From Candidatus Saccharimonadota bacterium (GTDB taxonomy: Bacteria > Patescibacteriota > Saccharimonadia > Saccharimonadales > Saccharimonadaceae), in NCBI GenBank assembly GCA_049296095.1, contig JBAQRV010000001.1:240001-272000 (forward strand): a stretch of 32,000 nt of DNA, read 5' to 3'. Positions 2,302 to 32,000 of this stretch are shown piece by piece (the stretch's first letter is position 1; the number at the start of each line of letters is the position of its first letter). The position numbers and the translations under genes were made by a program. Below the pieces are notes generated by a model. The model was not told where the DNA came from and did not search any database. It worked only from the letters and a program-made list of their open reading frames with translations.

Positions 2302-2787
2302 ATGAATAGCACTATCACCACGACAAGAGAAAAAACAATTTTACTGAGTAAAAAGGGTATGAAGGAGTTAAAAAGAGAGATCGCTCAGCTCGAACATGAC
2401 CGCCAGGCTATCATTCGCAGCCTCCATGACATTGATCGCTCCACCGGCCATGACGATCGCCTACAGAGGGTCGAGAAACTCGCTCAACTCGAAAGCATCG
2501 AATCGAATCTCGCCGACAAACGGCAAACTCTGACCGATGCACGTTTAATCCCATCAAAGCGTGCCCGTATGAAGGTAGCTATCGGATCTGTGGTTGATCT
2601 CATCGACCAACAAGGACGTCTTTTCCGCTACACACTCGTGGATACGATCGAAGCAAACCCAAGTGATGGACGAATTTCCATCGTCAGCCCGCTCGGTAGT
2701 CATCTGGTAGGAAAGACCCTGAAAGATACCGTCGAGTGGAACTCGGGTAGAACAAACACCACCTTCCGACTCGTACGGATTGGCTAG
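2302..2787 (+). CDS. GreA/GreB-family (Gre-factor-like) protein with a non-canonical N-terminal coiled coil
   Basis: The C-terminal 'VAIGSVVDL...ISIVSPLGSHLVGKTLKDTVEW...RLVRIG' matches the Gre C-terminal domain. AAGGAG lies at 2284-2289. A GTG at 2293 is an alternative start. Confidence 0.7.
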   Translation: MNSTITTTREKTILLSKKGMKELKREIAQLEHDRQAIIRSLHDIDRSTGHDDRLQRVEKLAQLESIESNLADKRQTLTDARLIPSKRARMKVAIGSVVDLIDQQGRLFRYTLVDTIEANPSDGRISIVSPLGSHLVGKTLKDTVEWNSGRTNTTFRLVRIG

Positions 2788-2804
2788 TAGTGTCGGTAAA
2801 GAGA

Positions 2805-2835
2805 AAAGACAGCCTCCTTTAAGGGGGCTGTTTTT
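2805..2835 (+). terminator. Rho-independent terminator after the Gre-like gene
   Basis: Stem cagcctcc (2810-2817) pairs with gggggctg (2823-2830), loop tttaa, then TTTTT (2831-2835). Confidence 0.7.
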
Positions 2836-2843
2836 GATACAAT
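2835..2843 (+). promoter_or_regulatory. Extended -10 box TGATACAAT, 7 nt upstream of the ATPase ATG (leaderless arrangement)
   Basis: TGATACAAT at 2835-2843, gap 'agtgcta', ATG at 2851, and no SD. Confidence 0.5.
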
Positions 2844-2850
2844 AGTGCTA

Positions 2851-5382
2851 ATGCTTTTCTATCATCAATCCGTCCAAGCCACCTATGACGAACTCCGCAG
2901 CGGCCCTGACGGATTATCGAAACGCGAGGCCAGTACCCGTCTTGAAACCTATGGCCCAAATGCCATCCAACTCAAGGGCGAACCTCTGTGGCGAAAATTA
3001 GTCGAGCCGTTTGCCAATGTCTTTATGGGTGTCTTGCTTGTCGCGGCCGTTATTAGTTTCATCCATGATGCCGTGTTTGATGCTTTGCTAATTATCGCCA
3101 TCATGCTGGTGAGTGCTGTTATCTACTACATTCAGCGCTTTTCAACTGAGCGTATCCTACGATCTTTACAGAAACGTTCCGCGCAGGAAGTAGAAGTTAT
3201 AAGGGGTGGCGAAACAGTCTCGGTTGACGTCAGCGAGTTAGTTCCAGGTGACCTTATCAAACTTAGCGAAGGCGACAAGGTGCCAGCCGATATCCGCCTC
3301 ACCGTCGCAAGTTCGGTTCGAACTGATGAAGCCGTCCTGACCGGAGAGTCGGCGCCAGTAAGCAAGAATCCCGACACGCTTGGCGAAAAGAAAGAAGTCT
3401 ATGAGCAGAGCAATATGCTGTTTCAGGGCTCTTTTATCGTCTCGGGACAGGCAACGGGTATCGTCGTCCATACTGGTAACCAGACAGAGTTCGGGCGGAT
3501 CGCTGCCCTAACGAACCAAAGCCCCGAAATGACCACCAGTCCTGTCCAAAAGAAGATTGATAAACTCTTGGCTTATATTGTTGCAGGTGTCGGTGGTATC
3601 GCGGTCATCGCCTTTATCCTGGCGCTGGCGAGAGGAACCGAGTTTGTTGAAGCATTGCGCTTTGTTATGGCCCTGTCGGTCTCGGCCGTCCCCGAAAGTC
3701 TGCCGGTTGCTATCTCGGTCATTCTTGTTCTGGGTATGCGCCGTATGGCGGCAAAAAAAGCCCTAGTGCGCACAATGGCAGCGATTGAAACCATCGGCGT
3801 TATTACCACCATCGCGACCGACAAAACCGGTACTCTAACTGAAAATAAACTATCCGTCCAGGAAACATGGACCCTTCCTGGCACCAAGCATCACCTCCCG
3901 ACCATTGTGCATCGAACCATTAATCATCATGGTGATCGGAGCCGTGATCCGCTCGATATTGCTATGATCGAGTTTACCTCTGCCCAAGAAGCGGTAAAAT
4001 TACACGGCGAATCAGTTGCCAAGCTGCCCTTCGATCAAGCCTATTCCATGAGTGGTAATGTCTGGCACCACAAAGGAAAATATGAGCTGGTTATTAAGGG
4101 TGCCCCTGAGCAGGTGATAGCCCGTAGTCAACTTACTAAAATCCAGAAGGACCATATTGAACTCGCGTTGCAAGCCCTGACTAGCCGAGGCTATCGTGTT
4201 ATCGCCCTGGCGTCTGCGCCGCTGACAAAGCCTGTCGAATCTTTTGCGGACATGCACGCCAAGTTGCAATTTGAGTTTGTCGGCCTCCTCGCCGTCGCCG
4301 ATACCCTTCGCCCTGCTGCACGGCGAGCTATCCAGACCGCTCAGGCGGCTGGTGTATCGGTTCGAATGATTACTGGTGACCATTTTGAAACAGCCTACCA
4401 TATTGGCCTACAGCTCGGCTTGATCCAGTCCCGCGACCAGGTGTTTGATAGCCGACTGATGAGCGATCTGAGTGATAAAGAGCTTACGAAACGTATTATC
4501 GACGCTCGTGTCTTCTCGCGGGTCACTCCAGAAAACAAGTTCCGTATCTTACAAATCCTAAAGGCCAAAGAGGTAACCGCCATGACAGGTGATGGTGTCA
4601 ATGACGTCCCAGCCTTAACAAATGCCAATGTCGGCGTTGCGATGGGGAGTGGTTCGCAAATCGCCAAAGACGCTGGCGACATCATCCTTTTGAATGACAA
4701 CTTTGCCAGTATTGTCCGAGCGATGCGCGAAGGCAGGATTATCTTCGCCAATATCCGTCGCATGCTTTTCTACCTCTTATCTACCAATCTTGGTGAGGTT
4801 GTCGTATCGATCGGTGCTCTGATCATCGGCATGCCTTTACCACTAGTACCGATTCAGATCCTTTGGATTAACCTTGTCACCGACACCACTATGGTGATTC
4901 CACTGGGGCTCGAACCAGGCGAGAAGGATGTCATGAAACGTAAACCAATTATCCCGACCTCTCCCTTACTGAGCTGGTATATGATTGGTCGTGTTCTCTT
5001 GGTTGCGGTCGTGATGGGCCTACTGACGCTCGCTATGTACGCTTTCTTTGCAGCCCAGTATGGCAATGCCTATGGGCAAACCATTGCCTTTACGGCCCTC
5101 GTCGTGATGCAGTGGGCCAATGCCTTTAATGCCCGCAGCACCTATCAATCCGTCTTTACGCGCCTCAAGGTCTGGAACAAGACCTTCTATATCGGCCTCG
5201 CGATTTCTGTCTTCTTGCAGGTTATTGCCGTTCTGGGGCCACTCCAGGGCCTACTGCACATCCATCCGGTCGCACTCGGTGACTTATTTACCACCAGTCT
5301 GATTGCCTTCTTTGCACTTATCCTCGTTGTCGAGATCCATAAGTTCTTTGGACGACGATTGATTAAAGATCCTCTCGAATAA
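2851..5382 (+). CDS. Cation-transporting P-type ATPase (P2-type, Ca2+/Mg2+-like)
   Basis: Contains 'TGES', the phosphorylation motif 'DKTGTLT', 'MITGD' and 'TGDGVNDVPAL', with about 10 TM segments. A GTG at 2845 is an alternative start. Confidence 0.92.
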   Translation: MLFYHQSVQATYDELRSGPDGLSKREASTRLETYGPNAIQLKGEPLWRKLVEPFANVFMGVLLVAAVISFIHDAVFDALLIIAIMLVSAVIYYIQRFSTERILRSLQKRSAQEVEVIRGGETVSVDVSELVPGDLIKLSEGDKVPADIRLTVASSVRTDEAVLTGESAPVSKNPDTLGEKKEVYEQSNMLFQGSFIVSGQATGIVVHTGNQTEFGRIAALTNQSPEMTTSPVQKKIDKLLAYIVAGVGGIAVIAFILALARGTEFVEALRFVMALSVSAVPESLPVAISVILVLGMRRMAAKKALVRTMAAIETIGVITTIATDKTGTLTENKLSVQETWTLPGTKHHLPTIVHRTINHHGDRSRDPLDIAMIEFTSAQEAVKLHGESVAKLPFDQAYSMSGNVWHHKGKYELVIKGAPEQVIARSQLTKIQKDHIELALQALTSRGYRVIALASAPLTKPVESFADMHAKLQFEFVGLLAVADTLRPAARRAIQTAQAAGVSVRMITGDHFETAYHIGLQLGLIQSRDQVFDSRLMSDLSDKELTKRIIDARVFSRVTPENKFRILQILKAKEVTAMTGDGVNDVPALTNANVGVAMGSGSQIAKDAGDIILLNDNFASIVRAMREGRIIFANIRRMLFYLLSTNLGEVVVSIGALIIGMPLPLVPIQILWINLVTDTTMVIPLGLEPGEKDVMKRKPIIPTSPLLSWYMIGRVLLVAVVMGLLTLAMYAFFAAQYGNAYGQTIAFTALVVMQWANAFNARSTYQSVFTRLKVWNKTFYIGLAISVFLQVIAVLGPLQGLLHIHPVALGDLFTTSLIAFFALILVVEIHKFFGRRLIKDPLE

Positions 5383-5409
5383 AAAACACTCGGCCTTTGC
5401 GAGTGTTTT
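5383..5409. terminator. Bidirectional hairpin terminator between convergent genes
   Basis: aaaacactcg (5383-5392) pairs with cgagtgtttt (5400-5409), loop gcctttg. An A-run lies before the stem and a T-run after it. Confidence 0.7.
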
Positions 5410-5431
5410 AATTGAAGATCAAGACTTACCC

Positions 5432-5683
5432 CTAAGATATAATGCTGAGCAATGTCCAGTTACCACCGTGGTTGTCACTGCGTAGTCGATACTGAGATTG
5501 TCCATCGGTCAGAGTAATGATCTCTGCCATTGATTCACCAGAGCGGACCAGGCAGCGGAGGCCAGCATCGATAAACTCGTAGATAGTTCCGCGAAATTCC
5601 ATGCGGCGTGGGTAAGCGGCTAGGTTCTTCTTAAATCCCATTTTTGTAACAGCGACTTCTTCATTGATAGTGATACGATTCAT
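5432..5683 (-). CDS. Hypothetical small protein (83 aa)
   Basis: ORF with a GGAGA SD (5692-5696 on plus) 8 nt upstream of the ATG at 5683. I recognised no family. Confidence 0.5.
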   Translation of the reverse strand: MNRITINEEVAVTKMGFKKNLAAYPRRMEFRGTIYEFIDAGLRCLVRSGESMAEIITLTDGQSQYRLRSDNHGGNWTLLSIIS

Positions 5684-6031
5684 GATTGTTTTCTCCAAAA
5701 GTTTTATTGTTTATCTAGTAACGCAAAAAGGCTGAACAAAGAGTTGATCAGCAGCGGATTTTGGAGGAGTGATTTGGAGAGGGGAGAGAGACCGCGTAGA
5801 CTCTATACCTTTTTACCAAATATCACATTAGATTGTATCGATTATCAGGGGCGCCTAGGTCTAGATCCTGGTGTGCATGACATCGTTGGTGGCTCTATAA
5901 GCCTGTAAGTAGAAATCCTCGCAGAAGTACTCACATGACTATCCTTAGTATACACCCGCCATTAGCATGAGCGTCAAGAGCTAAATAGACAACTCATCAC
6001 GCTGTCGCTTATTTACTTTTTAATGGTTTTG

Positions 6032-6040
6032 TGCTATAAC
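6032..6040 (+). promoter_or_regulatory. Extended -10-like TGCTATAAC in low-GC DNA upstream of the high-GC LPXTG gene
   Basis: It shares 'tgtgctataa' with the 8751-8760 promoter-like element. It would give a ~135-nt leader. Confidence 0.35.
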
Positions 6041-6095
6041 TATCCCCAAGCGTGTGAGCCTGTCTTTTTGATGTGGCTTGCAAGCACATCAGACA

Positions 6096-6106
6096 ATTCG
6101 ACTCAC
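6096..6106. repeat. Left copy of an 11-bp inverted repeat (attcgactcac) bracketing the LPXTG gene
   Basis: Exact reverse complement of 8261-8271. Confidence 0.5.
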
Positions 6107-6179
6107 AAGCCTATAACTTAATAGGCAAGACCATTCCTATCCATCAACCGTGCCCCTAGGGCACAGAGAGAAGGCCATC

Positions 6180-8264
6180 ATGGCATTCTTGTCCACGCTG
6201 GGATCTCGAAAGAAATCCCTGCTGACAGTGGTGACGGCAACCGCCGCCGCCTGTCTGCTCGCCCTGGCACCGCTCAGTGCGAACGCCGAAGGCGAACCTG
6301 ATCCGAACACCGAGGTCGTCACGACCGAAGGGGCATCCGCCCCCGAGGAAGAGACGGCACCGATCGAGGAGACGGAGGAGGTGACCGACGAGACGCCCGC
6401 CACCGAGGAATCCATCGCGGATTCCGAGAAGGAGATCGTCACCGAGGAATCCTCCAGGAAGATGCCCAAGAAGGTTTTCGTCTGCAAGTACGTCGGTACC
6501 CCCGGCGTCGACGAGGCCCTTCAGACCGGGCAGAACCCCATCTCGGTATCGGTCAACAGCATCCAGAACTGGGATGGTATCATCCCGGGCTACTTCTCGG
6601 ACGCTCACGATCGTTCCTACGTCCTCGAATACGACGAGGGTCAGGAAGAGCCGGATGTCTCGGAGTGCCCCGACCCGGATGACCCGTTCAACTGGGACTG
6701 GGAGTACGCAGCCCCGACATGCACCGCGCTGACCGTCGTCTACCCCTCGGACATCCCGAGCGGACAGGCGAACGATGTCAACGTGCGCATCGAGAACCTT
6801 CTCACCAACCAGGAGCTCACGCTGAACTTCCACAAGGACAGCGGCACCTGGAGCGGGACGAAGGTCTTCGATTTCACCACCCACCCGAACTGGCCGAACT
6901 GGTCGTACTACAAGGTGGAGTGGGTGCAGGTCGCAGGTACGAACTACCACTGGGAGGGCACCGTGACGTGCGGCACCCCGCCGCCGCCCGTCGTGCAGCA
7001 GTGTACCGCACCCAACGCGCCGATCACGCTCACCAACCTCGACGACATGTTCTTCGAGGACCGGCAGAACCCGAGTGACCCCACCAACAAGGGGACACAC
7101 GAGCTCGTCGACGGTGGTATCGAGATCAGCACGACCGGTGGCGGTTACTACTCGAAGTCCGCCGGCTACATCGCGGTTGACATCCCCTTCGAGGAGATCG
7201 GGTCGCCCAGCTTGGGCTACACGGTCTACTCCGGAGCGAGCGCCGGCCTGAACCTCACCCTGTACAAGAATGGGGTGTGGTTCGGTAACCTGGTGTACGA
7301 ACCGCTCTTCGCGGAGTGGTGGATCAACAAGGCTGTTCCCGGCATGTCCGCGGGACCGAACCCGGGCTACCAGCTCGCGTACGGAACCCTGGACGAGTTC
7401 CTGCAGGCCTTCGTGGCCAACGGATGGGACGTCGACGTCAAGGCGATCGGCTACTCGCTCGGTTCGAACGCGGTCGGTGCAGGCCTGGTAACCTCCCTGG
7501 TCATCGGGTGCGACACCTACTTGTTCGACAAGGCGTTCGTCGCTCCGACCGCGTCCGCGCAGATCATCTGCACGGAAGGTGACCCGTCGCTCGAGGTGAC
7601 AGGTACGGCCGGATCCGAGGAGACCGAGTTCCAGACGCAGATTTTCGGCGTCACGGTGCACACCGAGACGGTTGCCCCTTACGGTAGCTACTCGTATCCC
7701 GATCCGATCTCGGAGTTCCAGAATGGTGACAGCTTTACCGTCACCGTTCTCGCGAACGGCGTGGCGGTCTTTGGACCGACGGAGTTCACGATCGACTGTG
7801 AAGAGCCCGAGGAGCCGACGATTGTCGTCCCCGAGAGCCCGACCATGGTCGATCCGTGTGGCACCGACGACGACTCGTTCACCCTGCCGAGCGCTGAGCC
7901 CGGAGAGACCGAGTCGGTGACGGACGAAGGCACCTACACCGCCGACGACCAGCGCGACGAGAACGGCGTCGGTGACGTGATCGTGACGTTCACGCCCGCA
8001 GAAGGTTTCGTGGTGTCTGACACCAAGAACGCCGACTACGAGCTGGACGAGAACGGCAACGCCGTCTGGACCTTCACGTTCACCGACGAGAAGTGCCCAA
8101 CCAACCCGCCCGTGACGCCGCCCAGCACCACTGGGCTGCCGAACACCGGCTCTGGCAACCCGCTGCCCTTCGTGGGGGTCGGCTTCCTGCTGTTGTTTGC
8201 TGGATTGAGCTTCGTGCTCATCCAGCAGCGCCGTCGGAACAAGGCCAACGCCTCGGCCGAGTGA
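6180..8264 (+). CDS. Secreted LPXTG-anchored cell-wall surface protein (sortase substrate), foreign high-GC composition
   Basis: Signal peptide '...LLALAPLSANA/EGEPD', an acidic E/T/P-rich stalk, Cys-containing globular regions and a PPPP linker. C-terminal 'LPNTG' is followed by a hydrophobic stretch and 'QQRRRNK'. AGAAGG lies 5 nt upstream of the ATG at 6180. Confidence 0.85.
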   Translation: MAFLSTLGSRKKSLLTVVTATAAACLLALAPLSANAEGEPDPNTEVVTTEGASAPEEETAPIEETEEVTDETPATEESIADSEKEIVTEESSRKMPKKVFVCKYVGTPGVDEALQTGQNPISVSVNSIQNWDGIIPGYFSDAHDRSYVLEYDEGQEEPDVSECPDPDDPFNWDWEYAAPTCTALTVVYPSDIPSGQANDVNVRIENLLTNQELTLNFHKDSGTWSGTKVFDFTTHPNWPNWSYYKVEWVQVAGTNYHWEGTVTCGTPPPPVVQQCTAPNAPITLTNLDDMFFEDRQNPSDPTNKGTHELVDGGIEISTTGGGYYSKSAGYIAVDIPFEEIGSPSLGYTVYSGASAGLNLTLYKNGVWFGNLVYEPLFAEWWINKAVPGMSAGPNPGYQLAYGTLDEFLQAFVANGWDVDVKAIGYSLGSNAVGAGLVTSLVIGCDTYLFDKAFVAPTASAQIICTEGDPSLEVTGTAGSEETEFQTQIFGVTVHTETVAPYGSYSYPDPISEFQNGDSFTVTVLANGVAVFGPTEFTIDCEEPEEPTIVVPESPTMVDPCGTDDDSFTLPSAEPGETESVTDEGTYTADDQRDENGVGDVIVTFTPAEGFVVSDTKNADYELDENGNAVWTFTFTDEKCPTNPPVTPPSTTGLPNTGSGNPLPFVGVGFLLLFAGLSFVLIQQRRRNKANASAE

Positions 8265-8271
8265 GTCGAAT
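8261..8271. repeat. Right copy of the 11-bp inverted repeat (gtgagtcgaat), overlapping the LPXTG gene stop codon
   Basis: Exact reverse complement of 6096-6106. Confidence 0.5.
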
Positions 8272-8336
8272 CAGAACCCGTGTCTAGCGGCCTCTAGATA
8301 ATCAGTTCTGCCCTCGCAATAGGGCATCGAGCAACA

Positions 8337-8385
8337 GGGACCCCCGATCAGCTTCACGGCTGTGACGGGGTCCCTTCTCAATTTC
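8337..8385 (+). terminator. GC-rich hairpin terminator candidate after the LPXTG gene
   Basis: gggacccc (8337-8344) pairs with ggggtccc (8367-8374) and is followed by 'ttctcaatttc'. A smaller hairpin (tgccct/agggca) lies at 8309-8326. Confidence 0.5.
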
Positions 8386-8452
8386 AGAGTAATTTTTCAA
8401 ATCATAAACATAAGCGTATACTGTACTTACAACCTAAAGGAGGACGATAGGT

Positions 8453-8665
8453 ATGCGAGTAGTAAACGTTATAGCACTAATACTAATCATAATTGGAGGC
8501 CTCAACTGGGGACTGGTCGGATTCTTCGACTACAACCTTGTCGATGCCATCTTTGGCGAAGGCTCAGGCCTCGCGCGTGTCATCTATGCAGTCGTAGGAC
8601 TGGCAGCGGTGTACAAACTTGTGATTGCAATTGGCAGTCGCACAATGGCTACAGAGAAAAAATAA
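8453..8665 (+). CDS. DUF378-family small membrane protein
   Basis: 70 aa with two TM helices. 'IGGLNWGLVGFF..NLV' is the DUF378 signature. A strong SD AAAGGAGG lies at 8436-8443. Confidence 0.75.
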   Translation: MRVVNVIALILIIIGGLNWGLVGFFDYNLVDAIFGEGSGLARVIYAVVGLAAVYKLVIAIGSRTMATEKK

Positions 8666-8891: not shown

Positions 8892-10130
8892 ATGACATAC
8901 CGAAACACACGCTCATCAACCAAACCAAGCTCATCACGAGCAGGACACCGTTCATTCGGTGGTCCATCAAGTCGTCCACAACGAAGTGGAGGCGGCAACC
9001 GTCGTGGTGCTTATATCCACCCAAGTAAATTTATTAACAAGGCAGTCACCGCTGCCGAGGAAGTAATCTACGAAGCAAAGCATACTTTTGCTGATTTTAA
9101 GTTCCGCCCCGACCTTGAACGTAATATCGTTCACAAGGGCTACGTCACGCCAAGCGCCATCCAGGACCAAGCAATTCCGCACATCCTTGCAGGCAAGGAC
9201 GTCATTGGCCTCGCTAATACTGGTACGGGTAAGACAGCCGCCTTCCTTCTTCCGATCCTTGAAAAGTTAGACGAACGAACGCAGATGCCATCCGTACTCA
9301 TTATGGCACCGACTCGTGAGCTGGCCGTTCAGATCCAAGAAGAGTTCCGCGCCTTCTCAACTGGCATGCGTCTTTTCTCAGCCCTTGTGGTTGGTGGGAT
9401 GAACATTGACCGTCAGATTCGCGACATTCGTCGCCGTCCACACGTCATTATCGGCACACCTGGTCGTCTTAAAGACCTCATGAAACGAAATGAGCTCAAG
9501 CTCCAGGAAGTCAAATTCCTCGTCCTCGACGAAGCTGACCGAATGCTCGACATGGGATTCATCAACGACATCCGAAATATCATCAGTGAAATTCCTAAAG
9601 AACGCCAAACATTGTTCTTTAGTGCAACCATTACGCCAACCATCCAAACATTGGTGAATGAATTCTTGCAAAATCCTGAAGTTATCTCAGTCCGAACCGC
9701 CGACACCAGCGAACACGTCGAACAAGACATCGTTGAAGTTGCCAGCAAAGAAGCTAAGCTCGATACCTTAGTTGAGATGCTTCGTGGTGAAACTTTTGAT
9801 AAGGTCCTTGTTTTCGGTGAAACGAAATTCGGCGTCCAACGTCTGTCAGATCATCTTGAACGAAGCGGCTTTACCTCTGTTGCTATCCACGGTAACAAGT
9901 CTCAGTCACAACGCCAACGTGCCCTCAAGTCTTTCAAAGACAACCAGGTCAAGATCATGGTTGCCACCGACGTTGCCGCTCGTGGCCTCGACATTCCAAA
10001 TGTCAGCCACGTCATCAACTTTGATCAACCAGCCACCTATGAAGACTACGTCCACCGTATCGGCCGAACCGGTCGTGGTGGTGCCAGTGGAAAAGCTTTC
10101 ACTTTCGTTCCAACCCAGAACCGCTACTAA
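8892..10130 (+). CDS. DEAD-box ATP-dependent RNA helicase with an R/G/S-rich N-terminal extension
   Basis: Q-motif region, 'ANTGTGKTAAF', 'PTRELA', 'VLDEADRMLD', 'FSAT' and 'HRIGRTGRGG'. Confidence 0.93.
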   Translation: MTYRNTRSSTKPSSSRAGHRSFGGPSSRPQRSGGGNRRGAYIHPSKFINKAVTAAEEVIYEAKHTFADFKFRPDLERNIVHKGYVTPSAIQDQAIPHILAGKDVIGLANTGTGKTAAFLLPILEKLDERTQMPSVLIMAPTRELAVQIQEEFRAFSTGMRLFSALVVGGMNIDRQIRDIRRRPHVIIGTPGRLKDLMKRNELKLQEVKFLVLDEADRMLDMGFINDIRNIISEIPKERQTLFFSATITPTIQTLVNEFLQNPEVISVRTADTSEHVEQDIVEVASKEAKLDTLVEMLRGETFDKVLVFGETKFGVQRLSDHLERSGFTSVAIHGNKSQSQRQRALKSFKDNQVKIMVATDVAARGLDIPNVSHVINFDQPATYEDYVHRIGRTGRGGASGKAFTFVPTQNRY

Positions 10131-15052: not shown

Positions 15053-15126
15053 TGGCTGGGGATGAGGGATTCGAACCCCCGATATCGGGACCAGAACCCG
15101 GTGCCTTACCACTTGGCCAATCCCCA
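15053..15126 (-). tRNA. tRNA-Gln (anticodon CUG), CCA encoded
   Basis: The 74-nt reverse complement is TGGGGATTGGCCAAGTGGTAAGGCACCGGGTTCTGGTCCCGATATCGGGGGTTCGAATCCCTCATCCCCAGCCA. It has a 7-bp acceptor stem with a U1-A72 pair, a GGTTCGAATCC T-arm and the anticodon loop TTCTGGT. It closely resembles E. coli tRNA-Gln. Confidence 0.88.
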
Positions 15127-15232: not shown

Positions 15233-16897
15233 ATGAATCGGCTGAATAAAGGCTTTACTCTTGTCGAATTAATCGTTGTGATAGCGGTCATTGGTATTCT
15301 GGCAACCGTGACGGTGATCGGACTTGGACGCTATCAGGCTGATACCAGGGATGCTCGACGCGCTGCAAACGCGACGGTCATTAGTGAGGCGCTTGAAAAA
15401 TACTACGATGCCAACGGGGAATACCCAAGCTGTGGTGCGATCACTGCCGCAGGCAACGTTGTTACCGATAACACTGGCCCTTTGGCTGGCGTAGACAAGA
15501 ATTCTATCGTGGCACCGCAAGCACCTGGGGGAACAACCAACTCTATCGTCTGCGGCACTACACTCGGACTAACCGGTGATGACTTTTACCAGTACGTTGG
15601 CGATGGCAGTGCCGCATGTTCTGGAAGTAGCTCATGTTTGTCCTATAGCCTTAAATATCGCAATGAAGTCGACAATGAAATCATCACGCTTTCCGGTCGT
15701 CGCAATACCTCAATTGCAACTGCCGGCGCCGCTACTATTTCAGTCACGGCGATAGATTTCTCAACCATTAATGTCTCTTGGACCGCTATTCCAAATGCGA
15801 CCAGCTATCTCGTCCAGCGATGTACCGCGGCTGGGTGTGGCGTAGGAACAACCACCGATATCCCCGTTGGTGACGTCACCACCGCTACAGCCACTGGTCT
15901 GAGCAGTGGGACGCCGTACTGGTTCCGTGTTCGTCCAGATGCGACCTCGACAAACGGGACATGGTCAAATACTATCAGCGCTACAACTCTACAGATTGCC
16001 GCGCCGAACCCTCAAGGAACTCCCAACTCAGGAACACAGATCACGATTACCTGGAGTGCTGTCGCCAATGCCGTCAGCTACACACTTGAATACTCCACCT
16101 CACCAACACTTGCCAGTGGTGTCACGACGATTACAGGCATTACGACCACTAACCGCGTTCTCACAGGTCTGTCTGTCGGAGCGACCTATTATTTCCGCGC
16201 CAAGGCCATCAATGGTGCCATTCAAAGCGCCTGGTCATCTATCAATAATGCAACGACCGCTGTCCCTGCACCAGCGAGTTGTACTCCAAGTTTGGCGAGC
16301 AATACACAGATCAACCTCAGTTGGGCGGCGGTCACCAGCGCTACCAGCTACACCGTCGAATATGCAACCAATAGTGGGTTTACCAGTTCGACAGTCATAC
16401 CGAACATTGCCACAACCACACGTTCGCTTACCGGGCTTCTCAACGGAACATCCTATTATATGCGAGTTAAGGCAGTGAACGGCTCTGTCCAAGGTAGTTG
16501 GGCGACCTGCGCCACAACCTCTACAGGTGTTAGCGGTCCAATCTCAGCTGGATACAGCTATGGTGGCTGCTGCCAAGTAGTAAACATCGGTGCGGTTGAC
16601 TGGGTTGGGAGCAATGCGGATGGTTATAGCGGCAACAACTACGCCTCACACGTCGATACGTACGGCTCATGTGAAGGTGGCGCTGAATTCCAAATCTATA
16701 TGGATGTCTGGTACGCCTACAGCAACGGAAGTGGTGCCAATGATTATGCGGCCGAAGGCTGGACGACAGGTAACCGCAGCTGGTGGATGATTAATGGCTC
16801 TAATAGTTGGTATGGCTACTATAATGCCAAAGTGCGATGTCTCATCAATGGCCAAACGGCTGGTGGGTGGAGCATGGGCACGATCGGGGGATATTAG
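15233..16897 (+). CDS. Type IV pilin-like protein with three FN3 modules and an aromatic/Gly-rich C-terminal domain (554 aa)
   Basis: Class III signal 'MNRLNKG/FTLVELIVVIAVIGILA' with Glu at +5 and a pilin-core 'ALEKYYDANGEYPS'. This is followed by three ~88-aa FN3-like repeats and a 124-aa W/Y/G/N-rich C-terminus. Confidence 0.85.
   Translation: MNRLNKGFTLVELIVVIAVIGILATVTVIGLGRYQADTRDARRAANATVISEALEKYYDANGEYPSCGAITAAGNVVTDNTGPLAGVDKNSIVAPQAPGGTTNSIVCGTTLGLTGDDFYQYVGDGSAACSGSSSCLSYSLKYRNEVDNEIITLSGRRNTSIATAGAATISVTAIDFSTINVSWTAIPNATSYLVQRCTAAGCGVGTTTDIPVGDVTTATATGLSSGTPYWFRVRPDATSTNGTWSNTISATTLQIAAPNPQGTPNSGTQITITWSAVANAVSYTLEYSTSPTLASGVTTITGITTTNRVLTGLSVGATYYFRAKAINGAIQSAWSSINNATTAVPAPASCTPSLASNTQINLSWAAVTSATSYTVEYATNSGFTSSTVIPNIATTTRSLTGLLNGTSYYMRVKAVNGSVQGSWATCATTSTGVSGPISAGYSYGGCCQVVNIGAVDWVGSNADGYSGNNYASHVDTYGSCEGGAEFQIYMDVWYAYSNGSGANDYAAEGWTTGNRSWWMINGSNSWYGYYNAKVRCLINGQTAGGWSMGTIGGY
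15725..16522 (+). repeat. Three tandem FN3-like coding repeats inside the pilin-like gene
   Basis: Each repeat has the pattern '(I/V)..SW.A...A.SY.(V/L).(Y/R)... T..T.TGL..G..Y(Y/W)(F/M)R(V/A)(K/R)'. The repeats span about aa 165-252, 255-342 and 344-430. Confidence 0.7.
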
Positions 16898-29989: not shown

Positions 29990-32000
29990 TTAGTTGATTG
30001 ATGTGACAGTAAATGTTCCGCTCGAAGTAAAGCGATGAATCGTATTGCCACCCGAAGTAGTGATCGTTCCACCCGTCGCCGTCATCGTACCGGTAGGATA
30101 GGAGATAATAACCACACCAGAGCCACCGGCACCACCATTTCCGCCGCCATCGCCTCCGCCGCCGCCACCGCCGCCTCTGTTCGCCGTGCCCGCTGCGCCT
30201 GCAGTCGGACCGCCACCTTGGCCACCAACACCGCCAGCACAACCCGCCGCCCCTACACCATTAGTAACATTTGCCCAACGGCCACCGCTACCACCGCCTG
30301 CGTAGCAGACACTTGCACCACTTATTGAAGTTGTATAGCCGGCCCCTCCTGTACCCGAGACACCTGCGCTCATAGCACCTGTTGCATTACCACCTGCGCC
30401 CGTTGCGCCACCGCCACCACCACCTTGACCTGCAGTAGAGTCAGAGGATCCATTACCCCCTCTGTTCCCACGACCGATAGTCCCGAGCATACCCGCACCG
30501 GCAACTCCCGTTGCTGCGTCGATCGTCCCTGCGCCGCCGCCACCAGAACCACCTATTGTCGCCTGAGAAACAGAGTTTGTGTTAATGCGCCCGCCGCCGC
30601 CGCCGCCGCCTAGAGAGATAATTGTTGAGAATACCGAAGTACCACCCATTCCGCCTGGAGTACCGATGCCAACACCACCACTTCCTCCAGCACCAACCGT
30701 TACGGCATACGCCTGCTGGCTTACAACTACCGTACCTTCAGAAACACCGCCACCACCACCGCCACCTGCGTGGTTATTTCCGCCGCCGCCACCGCCACCA
30801 ACTACCAGCGCTTGTACCGTTGCTAGTTGTTCTGTATCTGGTACGGGTCGAAAAGCTGCACTATAAGAATAGGGGATTGTACTACTTGTAGACCAGACAA
30901 AACCGGCTAACCAACTTGCATCGGTACGAGTTAATATAGAGCTGTCAGATAATTTCCGAACTGAAAGGCTAAACCCAGCGCCACCACTAACATTGTAGTC
31001 TGAAACCGCAAACTGATGTTCACCCTCAGTAAGAGTCACGTTTACCGTATAGACATTGTTATATGAGCCTGAAGCGATGATAGTACCATCAAGATAGATA
31101 TCACAGGTTTCATCGCAGTTATATGTCACCCTCACATCAGTCGGTGAAGTAACCGTAATTGTTCGACTATCGCGAAAGAATGAGTACTGCGCCGACGGGG
31201 AATTACCGGAGCCATCATAATTATGCACTGTCGTAATCCAACGCGCACCCGCATCGCTACTATTACTTGTCCATGCGCTGTTAACTGCCTGTGCACTAAA
31301 CCTATCTCGACTCACTCCCCACATACTTGATAACGCATCAAAATCCTTATGTGCAAAGTTAACCGTGTCACCGGCCGTTGCTCGCCAACTGCGATCTGTC
31401 ACTGCAACTGGGATTGAAGCACCTTCTTGAATGACGCTCGCTTCAAAACGAGCAGCATTGTTTGCTAAGTCTGGACTCAGGTTAATCAAACGTACAAATA
31501 CATTGTGACATCCACTCGATAAAGTGACACTACCGGATCCGAGAGTGCCCGCTTCAGACCTAGTAATATACTTCCCGTCGACATATATATATGCACTATC
31601 GTTCACACCAGACACCTGTACGCCAACGTTATAAGTTCCTGCATTCGTCACGCTAAAGTCTTTCCTGTAGTAGGTCGAGCCGGGATTTAAAGCACTGTCA
31701 GAAATACTTATTGTCTGCGCTAAAGACGTGGGAGAGTAATCGACCTGAGTACTCGTAAGAACAGCTGCTTGCCAACCTAATGTGCTCGAAGTTGCCCCGG
31801 AACATAGATCGGGAACGACCGCCGCCTGGACGCTTGGTTGAGTGTAAGTTCGCCAGACCGATCCATTCGATGTACGAGTAATTTCCGTATAGCCAGTATT
31901 AGGGATAGTGACCGCTTTGCCATCACTATCGAGAGTCGGGCGACCCACACTAAATGAACTGCGGACATTGCCGTTCTGGGTTACGAAACATTGCGGGCCG
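29990..32000 (-). CDS. Large protein with PA14-like beta-sandwich modules and a C-terminal glycine-rich domain (N-terminus outside the window)
   Basis: The frame stays open to the window edge. The 31948 'start' is an internal GTG. Two PA14-like modules are present ('AYIYVDGKYI...GCHNVFVRL' and 'CDIYLDGTII...GEHQFAVSDYN'). A ~270-aa poly-Gly block domain ends 'GGNTIHRFTSSGTFTVTSIN'. Confidence 0.8.
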   Translation of the reverse strand, partial: GPQCFVTQNGNVRSSFSVGRPTLDSDGKAVTIPNTGYTEITRTSNGSVWRTYTQPSVQAAVVPDLCSGATSSTLGWQAAVLTSTQVDYSPTSLAQTISISDSALNPGSTYYRKDFSVTNAGTYNVGVQVSGVNDSAYIYVDGKYITRSEAGTLGSGSVTLSSGCHNVFVRLINLSPDLANNAARFEASVIQEGASIPVAVTDRSWRATAGDTVNFAHKDFDALSSMWGVSRDRFSAQAVNSAWTSNSSDAGARWITTVHNYDGSGNSPSAQYSFFRDSRTITVTSPTDVRVTYNCDETCDIYLDGTIIASGSYNNVYTVNVTLTEGEHQFAVSDYNVSGGAGFSLSVRKLSDSSILTRTDASWLAGFVWSTSSTIPYSYSAAFRPVPDTEQLATVQALVVGGGGGGGNNHAGGGGGGGVSEGTVVVSQQAYAVTVGAGGSGGVGIGTPGGMGGTSVFSTIISLGGGGGGGRINTNSVSQATIGGSGGGGAGTIDAATGVAGAGMLGTIGRGNRGGNGSSDSTAGQGGGGGGATGAGGNATGAMSAGVSGTGGAGYTTSISGASVCYAGGGSGGRWANVTNGVGAAGCAGGVGGQGGGPTAGAAGTANRGGGGGGGGDGGGNGGAGGSGVVIISYPTGTMTATGGTITTSGGNTIHRFTSSGTFTVTSIN

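Follow-up and report, generated by a model that had tools for sequence, protein, structure and literature searches.

A GC-rich sortase-substrate gene of actinobacterial type at a conserved, variable surface-protein locus of Saccharibacteria

Cultured Saccharibacteria are epibionts whose hosts are all Actinobacteria (PMC9040727). They are naturally competent, and several adhesins are needed for their epibiotic growth (PMC10633639). Host recognition and host prediction for Saccharibacteria and the CPR (candidate phyla radiation) pose an acknowledged open question (PMC11659515; PMC9040727), and published comparisons of genomes gave little sign of genes moving from host to epibiont; McLean et al. 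2020 reported no strong indication in TM7x of genes from its Actinomyces host (PMC7427843). Here we analyse a 32-kb stretch of contig JBAQRV010000001.1 (the window; positions 240,001 to 272,000), from a genome of Candidatus Microsaccharimonas (Saccharimonadaceae, Saccharibacteria), in which one gene (6180-8264, + strand) encoding a 694-amino-acid (aa) sortase-substrate surface protein stands out as an island of GC-rich DNA. The gene, hereafter the cassette, has a foreign, actinobacterial type of composition and a mosaic product, and lies in a slot that is conserved among related genomes and whose contents differ between near-identical strains. We propose that it is probably the current occupant of a hypervariable surface-protein expression slot, which would be repeatedly refilled with actinobacterial-type proteins, probably host adhesins.

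The cassette can be compared with three kinds of element that are already known, namely sortase substrates, GC islands and surface-antigen loci that recombine. The pneumococcal cps and pspA/pspC loci and the streptococcal emm locus are hypervariable surface loci that are exchanged by recombination in conserved flanks. The slot resembles them in its fixed position, its conserved flanks, the unrelated or mosaic alleles of close strains, and breakpoints in the flanks or the gene; unlike them, it draws on an allele pool that has the composition and modules of another phylum and includes unrelated proteins such as a GlxA-like oxidase. For horizontally acquired islands of atypical GC, Lawrence and Ochman reportedly formulated an amelioration model. 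The cassette is like such classical genomic islands in its atypical GC, third-codon-position GC (GC3) and oligonucleotide signature, its patchy phyletic pattern and the empty sites of relatives. It differs from them as a single gene without integrase, transposase, tRNA or direct repeats, as apparently promoter-less cargo behind a resident promoter, and in the apparent repeated refilling of its site.

The protein also recalls the LPXTG/LAXTG sortase-anchored adhesins, which include MSCRAMM-like proteins (microbial surface components recognizing adhesive matrix molecules) and the class E substrates of Actinomycetota: it has a putative signal peptide, a stalk, predicted tandem immunoglobulin (Ig)-like β-sandwiches and an LPXTG motif with hydrophobic segment and basic tail, and its relatives at the locus mostly carry LAxTG, some beside a sortase gene. 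However, its modules match no characterised adhesin family, its bearer is an ultrasmall epibiont, and its composition is that of the host phylum. The swapping of phage receptor-binding proteins is similar in its domain mosaicism, with distal modules exchanged and anchoring parts kept (compare loci L102/L104 and L117/L118; L numbers denote the loci that we compared), and one module of the cassette, module C, is common to Microbacterium phage proteins; by contrast, the cassette is a cellular gene with predicted sortase anchoring, and the phage homologues of module C lie outside the tail module. The host-interaction factors so far identified in Saccharibacteria are type IV pili, together with adhesins that carry lectin-like, dockerin or fibronectin type III (FN3) domains; they are essential in Southlakia transposon sequencing (PMC10633639; PMC9894109). 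Like the cassette protein, these are extracytoplasmic, have putative glycan-binding β-sandwich domains and belong to an epibiont of Actinobacteria, but the same papers (PMC10633639; PMC9894109) describe neither sortase-anchored high-GC cassettes of actinobacterial type nor this locus, and the literature searched contained no account of the locus, nor of any anchored cassettes of high GC from Saccharibacteria.

A single-gene island of foreign composition

The exact cassette protein is annotated by NCBI as 'LPXTG cell wall anchor domain-containing protein [Candidatus Microsaccharimonas sp.]' in the metagenome-assembled genome (MAG) GCA_049286885.1. An open reading frame (ORF) listing starts the gene at GTG 6150, giving 704 aa, whereas the ATG at 6180, preceded by GAGAGAAGG, gives 694 aa; an exact database look-up of the 704-aa product returned no match, and the 694-aa form is the one on record. 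The ATG at 6180 is likely to be the start codon, the GTG less so. BLASTP comparison with homologues revealed that the protein is a mosaic consisting of a putative signal peptide, a stalk, modules A, B, C, D and E, and an LPNTG anchor.

The whole window has a GC fraction of 0.50, with 0.63 in the 500-nucleotide (nt) intervals of 6501-8000 and 0.44-0.52 in the flanks. The cassette gene has a GC of 0.63 (0.58, 0.46 and 0.85 at codon positions 1, 2 and 3), and its GC3 of 0.85 lies at z = 6.7 relative to the 21 other genes of the window (0.495 ± 0.053, range 0.35-0.59). GC3 is raised in all modules, with 0.72 in the signal peptide, 0.86 in the sorting signal and 0.91 in module B. By segment, GC amounts to 0.43 at 5950-6100, 0.49 at 6100-6180, 0.63 in the gene, 0.56 at 8265-8385 and 0.33 at 8386-8452; it climbs within 6100-6180 and drops to 0.33 directly past a GC-rich hairpin at 8335-8375. 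The window has just one other GC-rich patch, at 30001-30500 (GC 0.61), which provides an internal contrast. It lies inside the gene of a 652-aa Gly-rich protein with a Pfam Gly_rich_2 domain (29990-31948, − strand), and because its GC excess sits in codon position 2 (GC2 0.62, GC3 0.40), it is an effect of amino-acid composition and not foreign DNA.

The foreign character of the island extends beyond GC itself. GC-normalised tetranucleotide frequencies of the island correlate with those of the rest of the window at r = 0.33, as compared with 0.53-0.85 for 12 control pieces, and with those of the non-homologous flanks of nine actinobacterial loci at r = 0.71-0.80. An original prediction, made from the sequence alone, had described a one-gene GC island at 6145-8385 with G or C at third positions unlike its neighbours, a 501-aa stop-free shadow ORF on the opposite strand and an actinobacterial look, and had raised the case that the genome might be Saccharibacteria-like. 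The composition agrees with the first of these, and the limits are about right; the shadow ORF is present at 6156-7661 (−), GC3, tetranucleotide signature and homologues bear out the actinobacterial look, and the MAG annotation shows that the genome is indeed Saccharibacterial.

Homologues of the modules occur in Actinomycetota, including Demequina, Agromyces, Nocardioides, Isoptericola, Luteimicrobium, Rhodoglobus, Leifsonia, Nakamurella, Ilumatobacteraceae and Gaiella, and in many Saccharibacteria; the genome scan used an alignment of modules A and B, an initial mixed-module alignment being too gappy. The actinobacterial homologues have a GC of 0.62-0.72 in genomes of 0.63-0.74, that is, their native composition. 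The Saccharibacterial homologues lie 8-16 GC points above their surrounding DNA, with GC3 up to 0.86, except for two fully ameliorated copies elsewhere (L046 and L049, 0.46-0.49). The nucleotide identity of module B is 75-76% with Demequina, compared with 68-70% for other Saccharibacterial copies (L003 excepted); that of module C is 79.7% (L085) and 76.6% with two genes from Actinomycetota, compared with 69.7% for a Saccharibacterial gene. Module A reaches 81-86% with copies in Saccharibacteria and Actinomycetota alike. In a neighbour-joining tree of module B, the actinobacterial copies cluster by genus, which suggests that they are native genes, and those from Saccharibacteria occupy three different positions (bootstrap 8-65% at the deep nodes). 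The cassette homologue of the Saccharibacterium TM7i has its best named matches in Agromyces, Nocardioides and Demequina, and all its matches lie in Microbacteriaceae other than the host genus Leucobacter or in further Actinomycetota. A search of plasmids gave no match. Collectively, the cassette DNA is of actinobacterial type, and an actinobacterial origin is well supported; the DNA may be host-derived.

Neither an integrase or transposase near the island nor flanking direct or att-like repeats were found in the window, and no tRNA lies at the borders, the sole tRNA of the window being at 15053-15126. The junction segments 6096-6182 and 8265-8460 resemble nothing in any compared locus. A 13-nt inverted repeat, 12/13 complementary, brackets the island (6028-6040 and 8468-8480; TTTGTGCTATAAC and GTTATAGCACTAA). 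One arm coincides with the promoter box, the second is inside a DUF378 gene, and with a rough chance estimate of about 2-3 such pairs per 3 kb the repeat is probably meaningless.

A conserved slot with exchanged contents

The second-best protein match to the cassette (P0002, 40% identity, GC3 0.905) lies in a related genome with the identical gene order, from CysS through a response regulator (RR), a histidine kinase (HK), GreA, a P-type ATPase and a conserved 83-aa protein, h83, to the gene itself. The order RR-HK-GreA-ATPase-h83 followed by a high-GC gene recurs in L003, L004, L005, L012, L041, L079 and L083, and in tblastn searches with the window neighbours no fewer than seven genomes of Saccharibacteria showed this arrangement, their ATPases being 59-76% identical. 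In TM7i, h83 adjoins a cassette homologue in a rearranged context. A metagenome scan anchored on h83 yielded 58 related contigs with enough upstream DNA, which were assigned by synteny and GC only. In 47 of them, the adjacent divergent ORF encodes 341-912 aa and has a GC of 0.57-0.675 and a GC3 of 0.60-0.92, over a background GC of 0.42-0.55; in 5 more, the high-GC gene lies one or two genes away. Four contigs, three of them distinct (L103/L106, L146 and L155), carry h83 and the structured RNA described below with no high-GC gene within the contig sequence, and would thus represent empty sites.

The 43 distinct anchored proteins have a GC3 of 0.763 ± 0.065, compared with 0.506 ± 0.092 in 387 other ORFs. 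Their sorting motifs are mostly LAxTG (LASTG in ten, LAYTG in four, LAETG in two), which we take to be the motif of actinobacterial class E type sortases; LPQTG and LPNTG also occur. Modules A, B, C and E of the window protein are found in 9, 1, 7 and 10 of the 43, respectively, and about 30 have some module in common with the few actinobacterial loci compared. At some of the related loci, a second anchored gene of high GC lies close by. No promoter-less, silent cassette archive, as in programmed antigenic variation of the pilE/pilS or vlsE type, was seen in the related loci, the window itself covering only 32 kb of its genome.

The age of the slot contents can be gauged against that of the flanks. 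When the window is compared with L003, its nearest relative, the proportion of differing synonymous sites (pS) in the RR, HK, GreA and ATPase genes is 0.79-0.84, which is saturated. By contrast, the 312 nt of module B are 89% identical (91% in aa), with a pS of 0.35, a synonymous distance (dS) of 0.46 and a ratio of nonsynonymous to synonymous distance (dN/dS) of 0.10. Because a dS of 0.46 stands against saturated flanking genes, module B was shared long after the two genomes diverged; its dN/dS indicates purifying selection. Moreover, as the flanking synonymous sites are saturated, no ancestral GC3 of 0.85-0.90 could have persisted passively in both lineages.

Direct comparison of related contigs, outside the window's own species, captures such exchanges at closer range. 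The flanks of L135 and L136 are 95.6-97.0% identical, whereas their slots hold unrelated DNA of 2.0 kb and 4.6 kb. L102 and L104, with flanks 96% identical, retain the final ~200 bp, which encode the hydrophobic tail at the C terminus, but have entirely different ectodomains, and L117 and L118 have only the first 800 bp in common. The breakpoints of these swaps thus fall in the conserved flanks or within the gene. In L136 the slot contains (3597-5651, −), in place of a modular protein with an anchor, a GlxA/galactose-oxidase-like protein with kelch and E-set domains, a GC3 of 0.68 and no cell-wall anchor.

The original prediction had envisaged a single recent acquisition of one gene, and had named high-GC homologues in a similar context of the same lineage as a sign of an ancient resident gene instead. 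High-GC anchored genes fill the slot in many Saccharibacteria, so a single event does not describe the locus. Since homologous and non-homologous genes of this kind occupy the same slot, the locus is old and resident; its contents, however, are not an ancient un-ameliorated gene, as the dS of module B and the swaps between flanks that are 96-97% identical indicate. The picture that emerges from these comparisons is one of apparent recurrent replacement at a dedicated slot.

Architecture, expression signals and surroundings

The putative signal peptide (aa 1-36; 6180-6287, +), identified by inspection of the translation, comprises an RKK n-region, a hydrophobic core and a cleavage-type site between ANA and EG. 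It is followed by an acidic, E/T/P-rich stalk (aa 37-95; 6288-6464, +), which is predicted to be disordered, with a predicted local distance difference test score (pLDDT) of <50 in the full-length AlphaFold model. Module A (aa 96-165; 6465-6674, +; KKVFVCKYVGTPGVDE..., KKVFVCKYVGTPG...), delimited by BLASTP homologues, is the most widespread module, at up to 83% aa identity, and is frequently duplicated in other proteins. Module B (aa 166-270; 6675-6989, +) is a predicted Cys-bracketed β-sandwich with a TPPPP end (pLDDT 80-95), and modules D and E (aa 456-650; 7545-8129, +) are predicted Ig/FN3-like β-sandwiches (pLDDT 71-95); the AlphaFold models of B, D and E gave only generic fold matches of the Ig/FN3/macroglobulin type. 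L003 contains E-like repeats, as do 10 of 43 other cassettes. The sorting signal (8130-8264, +) consists of LPNTG (8136-8150), a hydrophobic helix of ~25 residues, an RRRNK tail and the stop codon, and matches the NCBIfam model TIGR01167 (LPXTG_anchor) with 17.1 bits against a cutoff of 15.9. This layout had been read from the sequence in the original prediction, with signal peptide, stalk, Cys-paired regions, PPPP linker and sorting signal in their places and a protein length of 694 aa, as annotated by NCBI. When the whole protein was searched against Pfam and NCBIfam, the anchor alone passed; the repeat of CshA-type fibrillar adhesins (PF19076), with 13.9 bits (E = 0.088), fell short of its cutoff of 27 and was rejected.

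Module C (aa 271-455; 6990-7544, +) has no sequence match in Pfam or the PDB, including a profile search of PDB sequences. The full-length AlphaFold model left it unmodelled, and Foldseek then returned only generic Ig/FN3/macroglobulin arrays. Modelled alone with 28 homologues, it is predicted to be a β-jelly-roll with one helix (pLDDT 96.3; predicted template modelling score 0.89). Carbohydrate-binding modules (CBMs) dominate its Foldseek matches in the PDB, with CBM11 at template modelling (TM) scores of 0.44/0.51, a probability of 0.99 and 11-15% identity, along with CBM35, CBM6 and CBM86. From this weakly CBM-like fold we infer that module C is a candidate glycan binder. Relatives of module C are also encoded by Microbacterium phages (Megan gp43, Nicole72, Gina and Teamocil), at 31-33% identity in tblastn, and their genes follow those for lysis; Megan gp43 (L167, NC_073368.1 33728-35185), whose gene sits between lysis and recombination genes, matches module C in Foldseek at E = 1e-10, and one phage homologue is annotated as a membrane protein.

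In relatives, sortase genes (Pfam PF04203) directly follow the cassettes on their downstream side at L041 (9430-10167), L087/L094 (~2388-3014), L117, L120, L126, L107 and L096/97/100, and their GC3 is moderately raised (0.66 in L041). The cassettes of the sortase-linked loci end in an atypical '...GGANTG...' signal.

Upstream of the cassette, a predicted resident promoter (6012-6040, +) lies in the conserved low-GC flank and consists of TTTACT, a 17-nt spacing and the extended −10 element TGcTATAAC (6032-6040), which is kept as TGcTATAAT in relatives. A recipient-style low-GC box at 6032 had been anticipated in the original prediction, and this promoter appears to drive the cassette; a simple consensus promoter scan did not call it, the window copy ending in C (TATAAC). 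A conserved hairpin in the 5′ leader (6070-6090, +; GATGTGGC..GCACATC) shows compensatory variants in L003 and L041. The intergenic region is far more conserved than the coding flanks, and homology with all relatives stops at ~5980-6110, the upstream edge of the variable segment being at ~6099-6110. Downstream of the gene, a GC-rich hairpin (GGGACCCCC...GGGGGUCCC) followed by UUCUCAAUUUC (8335-8385, +; −48.8 kcal/mol for the region, z = −3.3) is probably the gene's own terminator, carried inside the island, although it was missed by a simple scan for terminators.

Between h83 and the cassette promoter, a structured RNA of ~220 nt (5722-5941, −) has its own predicted promoter (~5948-5977; TTGACG/TGnTATACT) and a terminator consisting of a hairpin and a U-run (~5720-5760). 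It is present in 69 of 70 h83 loci, the empty ones included, and belongs to the conserved flank and not to the island. Its consensus comprises 42 pairs in 10 helices and is 99.2% paired, and 19 pairs show compensatory changes, as compared with 5.4 ± 1.3 in shuffled alignments (0/500) and 2-5 in slid controls. There are three variable sites of hairpin insertion and a CU-rich, anti-Shine-Dalgarno-like stretch (CCCUCUCYAAAUCWCUCCUCC). Neither strand matches Rfam, and the RNA may be a new family or a cis-acting leader of h83. The h83 gene (5432-5683, −), which anchors the locus, is divergent from the cassette, and its product is 63-91% identical across loci. Its proportion of differing nonsynonymous sites (pN) of 0.078 against a pS of 0.69 points to purifying selection. 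The protein has no Pfam match and no meaningful PDB match, including a profile search of PDB sequences. In Saccharimonadaceae-type genomes, h83 is nearly always found beside the structured RNA and usually beside a high-GC cassette.

Several further features were observed around the locus. Small, unanchored high-GC genes (GC3 0.70-0.88) without a Pfam match lie nearby in L003 (8595/8691-9113, +; a 140-aa ORF inserted between the ATPase gene and h83), L083 (678-1106), L123 (9133-9561) and L128 (467-1138); they suggest that more actinobacterial-type DNA may land in this neighbourhood. A reverse-transcriptase (RVT_1) gene is located ~1.5 kb downstream of the cassette in L083 (9983-11197, −). The cassette of L004 (Saccharibacteria 49-20) is split at ~9300-9420 by a run of N within tandem 'TQTRTKTTTPYK'-type repeats, with the anchor at the true C terminus in another frame; this is an assembly gap, not a pseudogene. 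Elsewhere in the window, a 554-aa protein (15233-16897, +) combines an N-terminal prepilin-type methylation motif with FN3 and purple-acid-phosphatase-N-like domains, and its homologue in L045 adjoins a module-A gene. With its large β-sandwich body, this pilin-like protein is another candidate host-contact factor.

Origin of the cassette and competing explanations

We consider it probable that the island is the present occupant of a hypervariable expression slot for surface proteins, conserved in Saccharimonadaceae-type Saccharibacteria. The slot would lie beside a conserved unit of h83, structured RNA and back-to-back promoters, and the resident promoter with its short conserved leader would drive whichever gene lies downstream. 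Occupants would be secreted and mostly sortase-anchored proteins built from the wall-protein modules of Actinomycetota, retaining actinobacterial composition, and would be replaced, wholly or in part, by recombination. DNA of actinobacterial composition would enter the Saccharibacterial gene pool, plausibly by natural competence with homology provided by resident modules, and cassettes would then spread and be reshuffled among Saccharibacteria through the conserved flanks and common modules. The window protein, displayed on the wall of the epibiont, may mediate contact with, or adhesion to, the envelope of an actinobacterial host. We infer such a contact because cultured Saccharibacteria all live on Actinobacteria, adhesins are essential to them, the protein is built for surface display and module C resembles glycan binders.

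Several observations weigh against this explanation. The host-derived gene of the original prediction holds as regards its actinobacterial type, but the databases searched contain no direct donor: the best actinobacterial matches reach 47-65% aa identity per module and at most 80% nucleotide identity over ~300 nt. The transfers could thus be old, or could have passed through unsampled intermediates. The TM7i homologue has no match in Leucobacter, the host genus of TM7i, and the low bootstrap values leave the polyphyly of Saccharibacterial module-B copies weak. No mobility gene, att-like repeat or tRNA explains how host DNA would integrate without flank homology. The metagenome contigs carry no taxonomy of their own. 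As to function, anchoring needs a sortase and the 32-kb window holds no sortase gene, modules A, B, D and E yield no functional clue, and the CBM matches of module C, with E values of at least 4.6e-3 and TM scores of at most 0.51, amount to a weak resemblance.

The most serious competitor, though in our judgement clearly less likely, accepts the same origin and turnover and assigns the proteins another role: camouflage or mimicry of host surface proteins, evading host defences or phages, or else a decoy or nutrient-capture function. The modules are those of the host phylum's own wall proteins, the fast turnover would suit an arms race, and homologues of module C occur in phage proteins, one of them annotated as a membrane protein. 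The turnover would fit mimicry or a decoy role just as well. The CBM-like fold predicted for module C and the requirement for adhesins in cultured relatives lean towards binding, but nothing discriminates outright between the two roles.

It is less probable still that the cassettes form an ancient resident family, derived from one old transfer or even passed from Saccharibacteria to Actinomycetota, whose high GC3 is maintained locally by GC-biased gene conversion at a hot spot of recombination or by selection on mRNA or codons. The locus is indeed old and conserved and is clearly a recombination hot spot, and the GC3 of the cassettes forms a continuum from 0.6 to 0.92, while the homologues at L046 and L049, outside the slot, have ameliorated. 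However, a process that pushes GC upwards would not yield a tetranucleotide signature that, with GC removed, fits actinobacterial genomes and not the cassette's own. Unrelated proteins at the slot, such as the GlxA-like oxidase, are likewise GC-rich, the actinobacterial copies are native in composition and grouped by taxonomy, and modules B and C are closer to actinobacterial than to other Saccharibacterial copies. Highly expressed core genes do not show the effect either, the ATP synthase genes of the window having a GC3 of only 0.50-0.54.

It is quite improbable that one isolated and recent horizontal transfer brought a single gene of an actinobacterial host to a position without special meaning. 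Such a transfer would account for the high GC3 that runs through the whole gene from start codon to terminator, and for the actinobacterial signature and homologues. Against it, a high-GC anchored gene, of differing domain content, fills the slot in 47 of the 58 related contigs and in at least seven named Saccharibacterial genomes, near-identical strains show swaps, and chance insertion at one site in so many lineages is not credible. An assembly or binning artefact, in which actinobacterial reads were wrongly merged into a Saccharibacterial contig, could produce an abrupt change of composition in a metagenome-derived MAG, as the original prediction had cautioned, but we dismiss it, since a separate Logan assembly (SRR28062512) matches the window at 100% identity along 15,082 nt that span both junctions, over 50 contigs from many samples share the architecture, among them some of 0.3-0.98 Mb as well as the whole chromosome of TM7i, which is complete, and a conserved Saccharibacterial promoter and leader adjoin the gene.

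The reading of the island as the occupant of a refilled surface-protein slot gives the combination of h83, structured RNA and GC-rich anchored gene the value of a concrete and easily found marker, and leads to candidate proteins for host contact in a relative that can be cultured, TM7i, which has such a gene (KI440_02330). It would also provide a natural example of inter-phylum gene flow aimed at one expression site. Should the function prove unrelated to hosts, the locus would still be a striking recombination hot spot, of narrower interest. We tentatively suggest a further possibility, that the slot is repeatedly loaded with genes or modules captured by competence from the DNA of host Actinobacteria, so that the cassette sets or tracks the host range and modules of the host lineage are used to recognise its envelope or to blend into it. 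If this is true, the host of an uncultured Saccharibacterium would be predictable from the actinobacterial relatives closest to its cassette, which may open a way to sequence-based host inference for uncultured Saccharibacteria.

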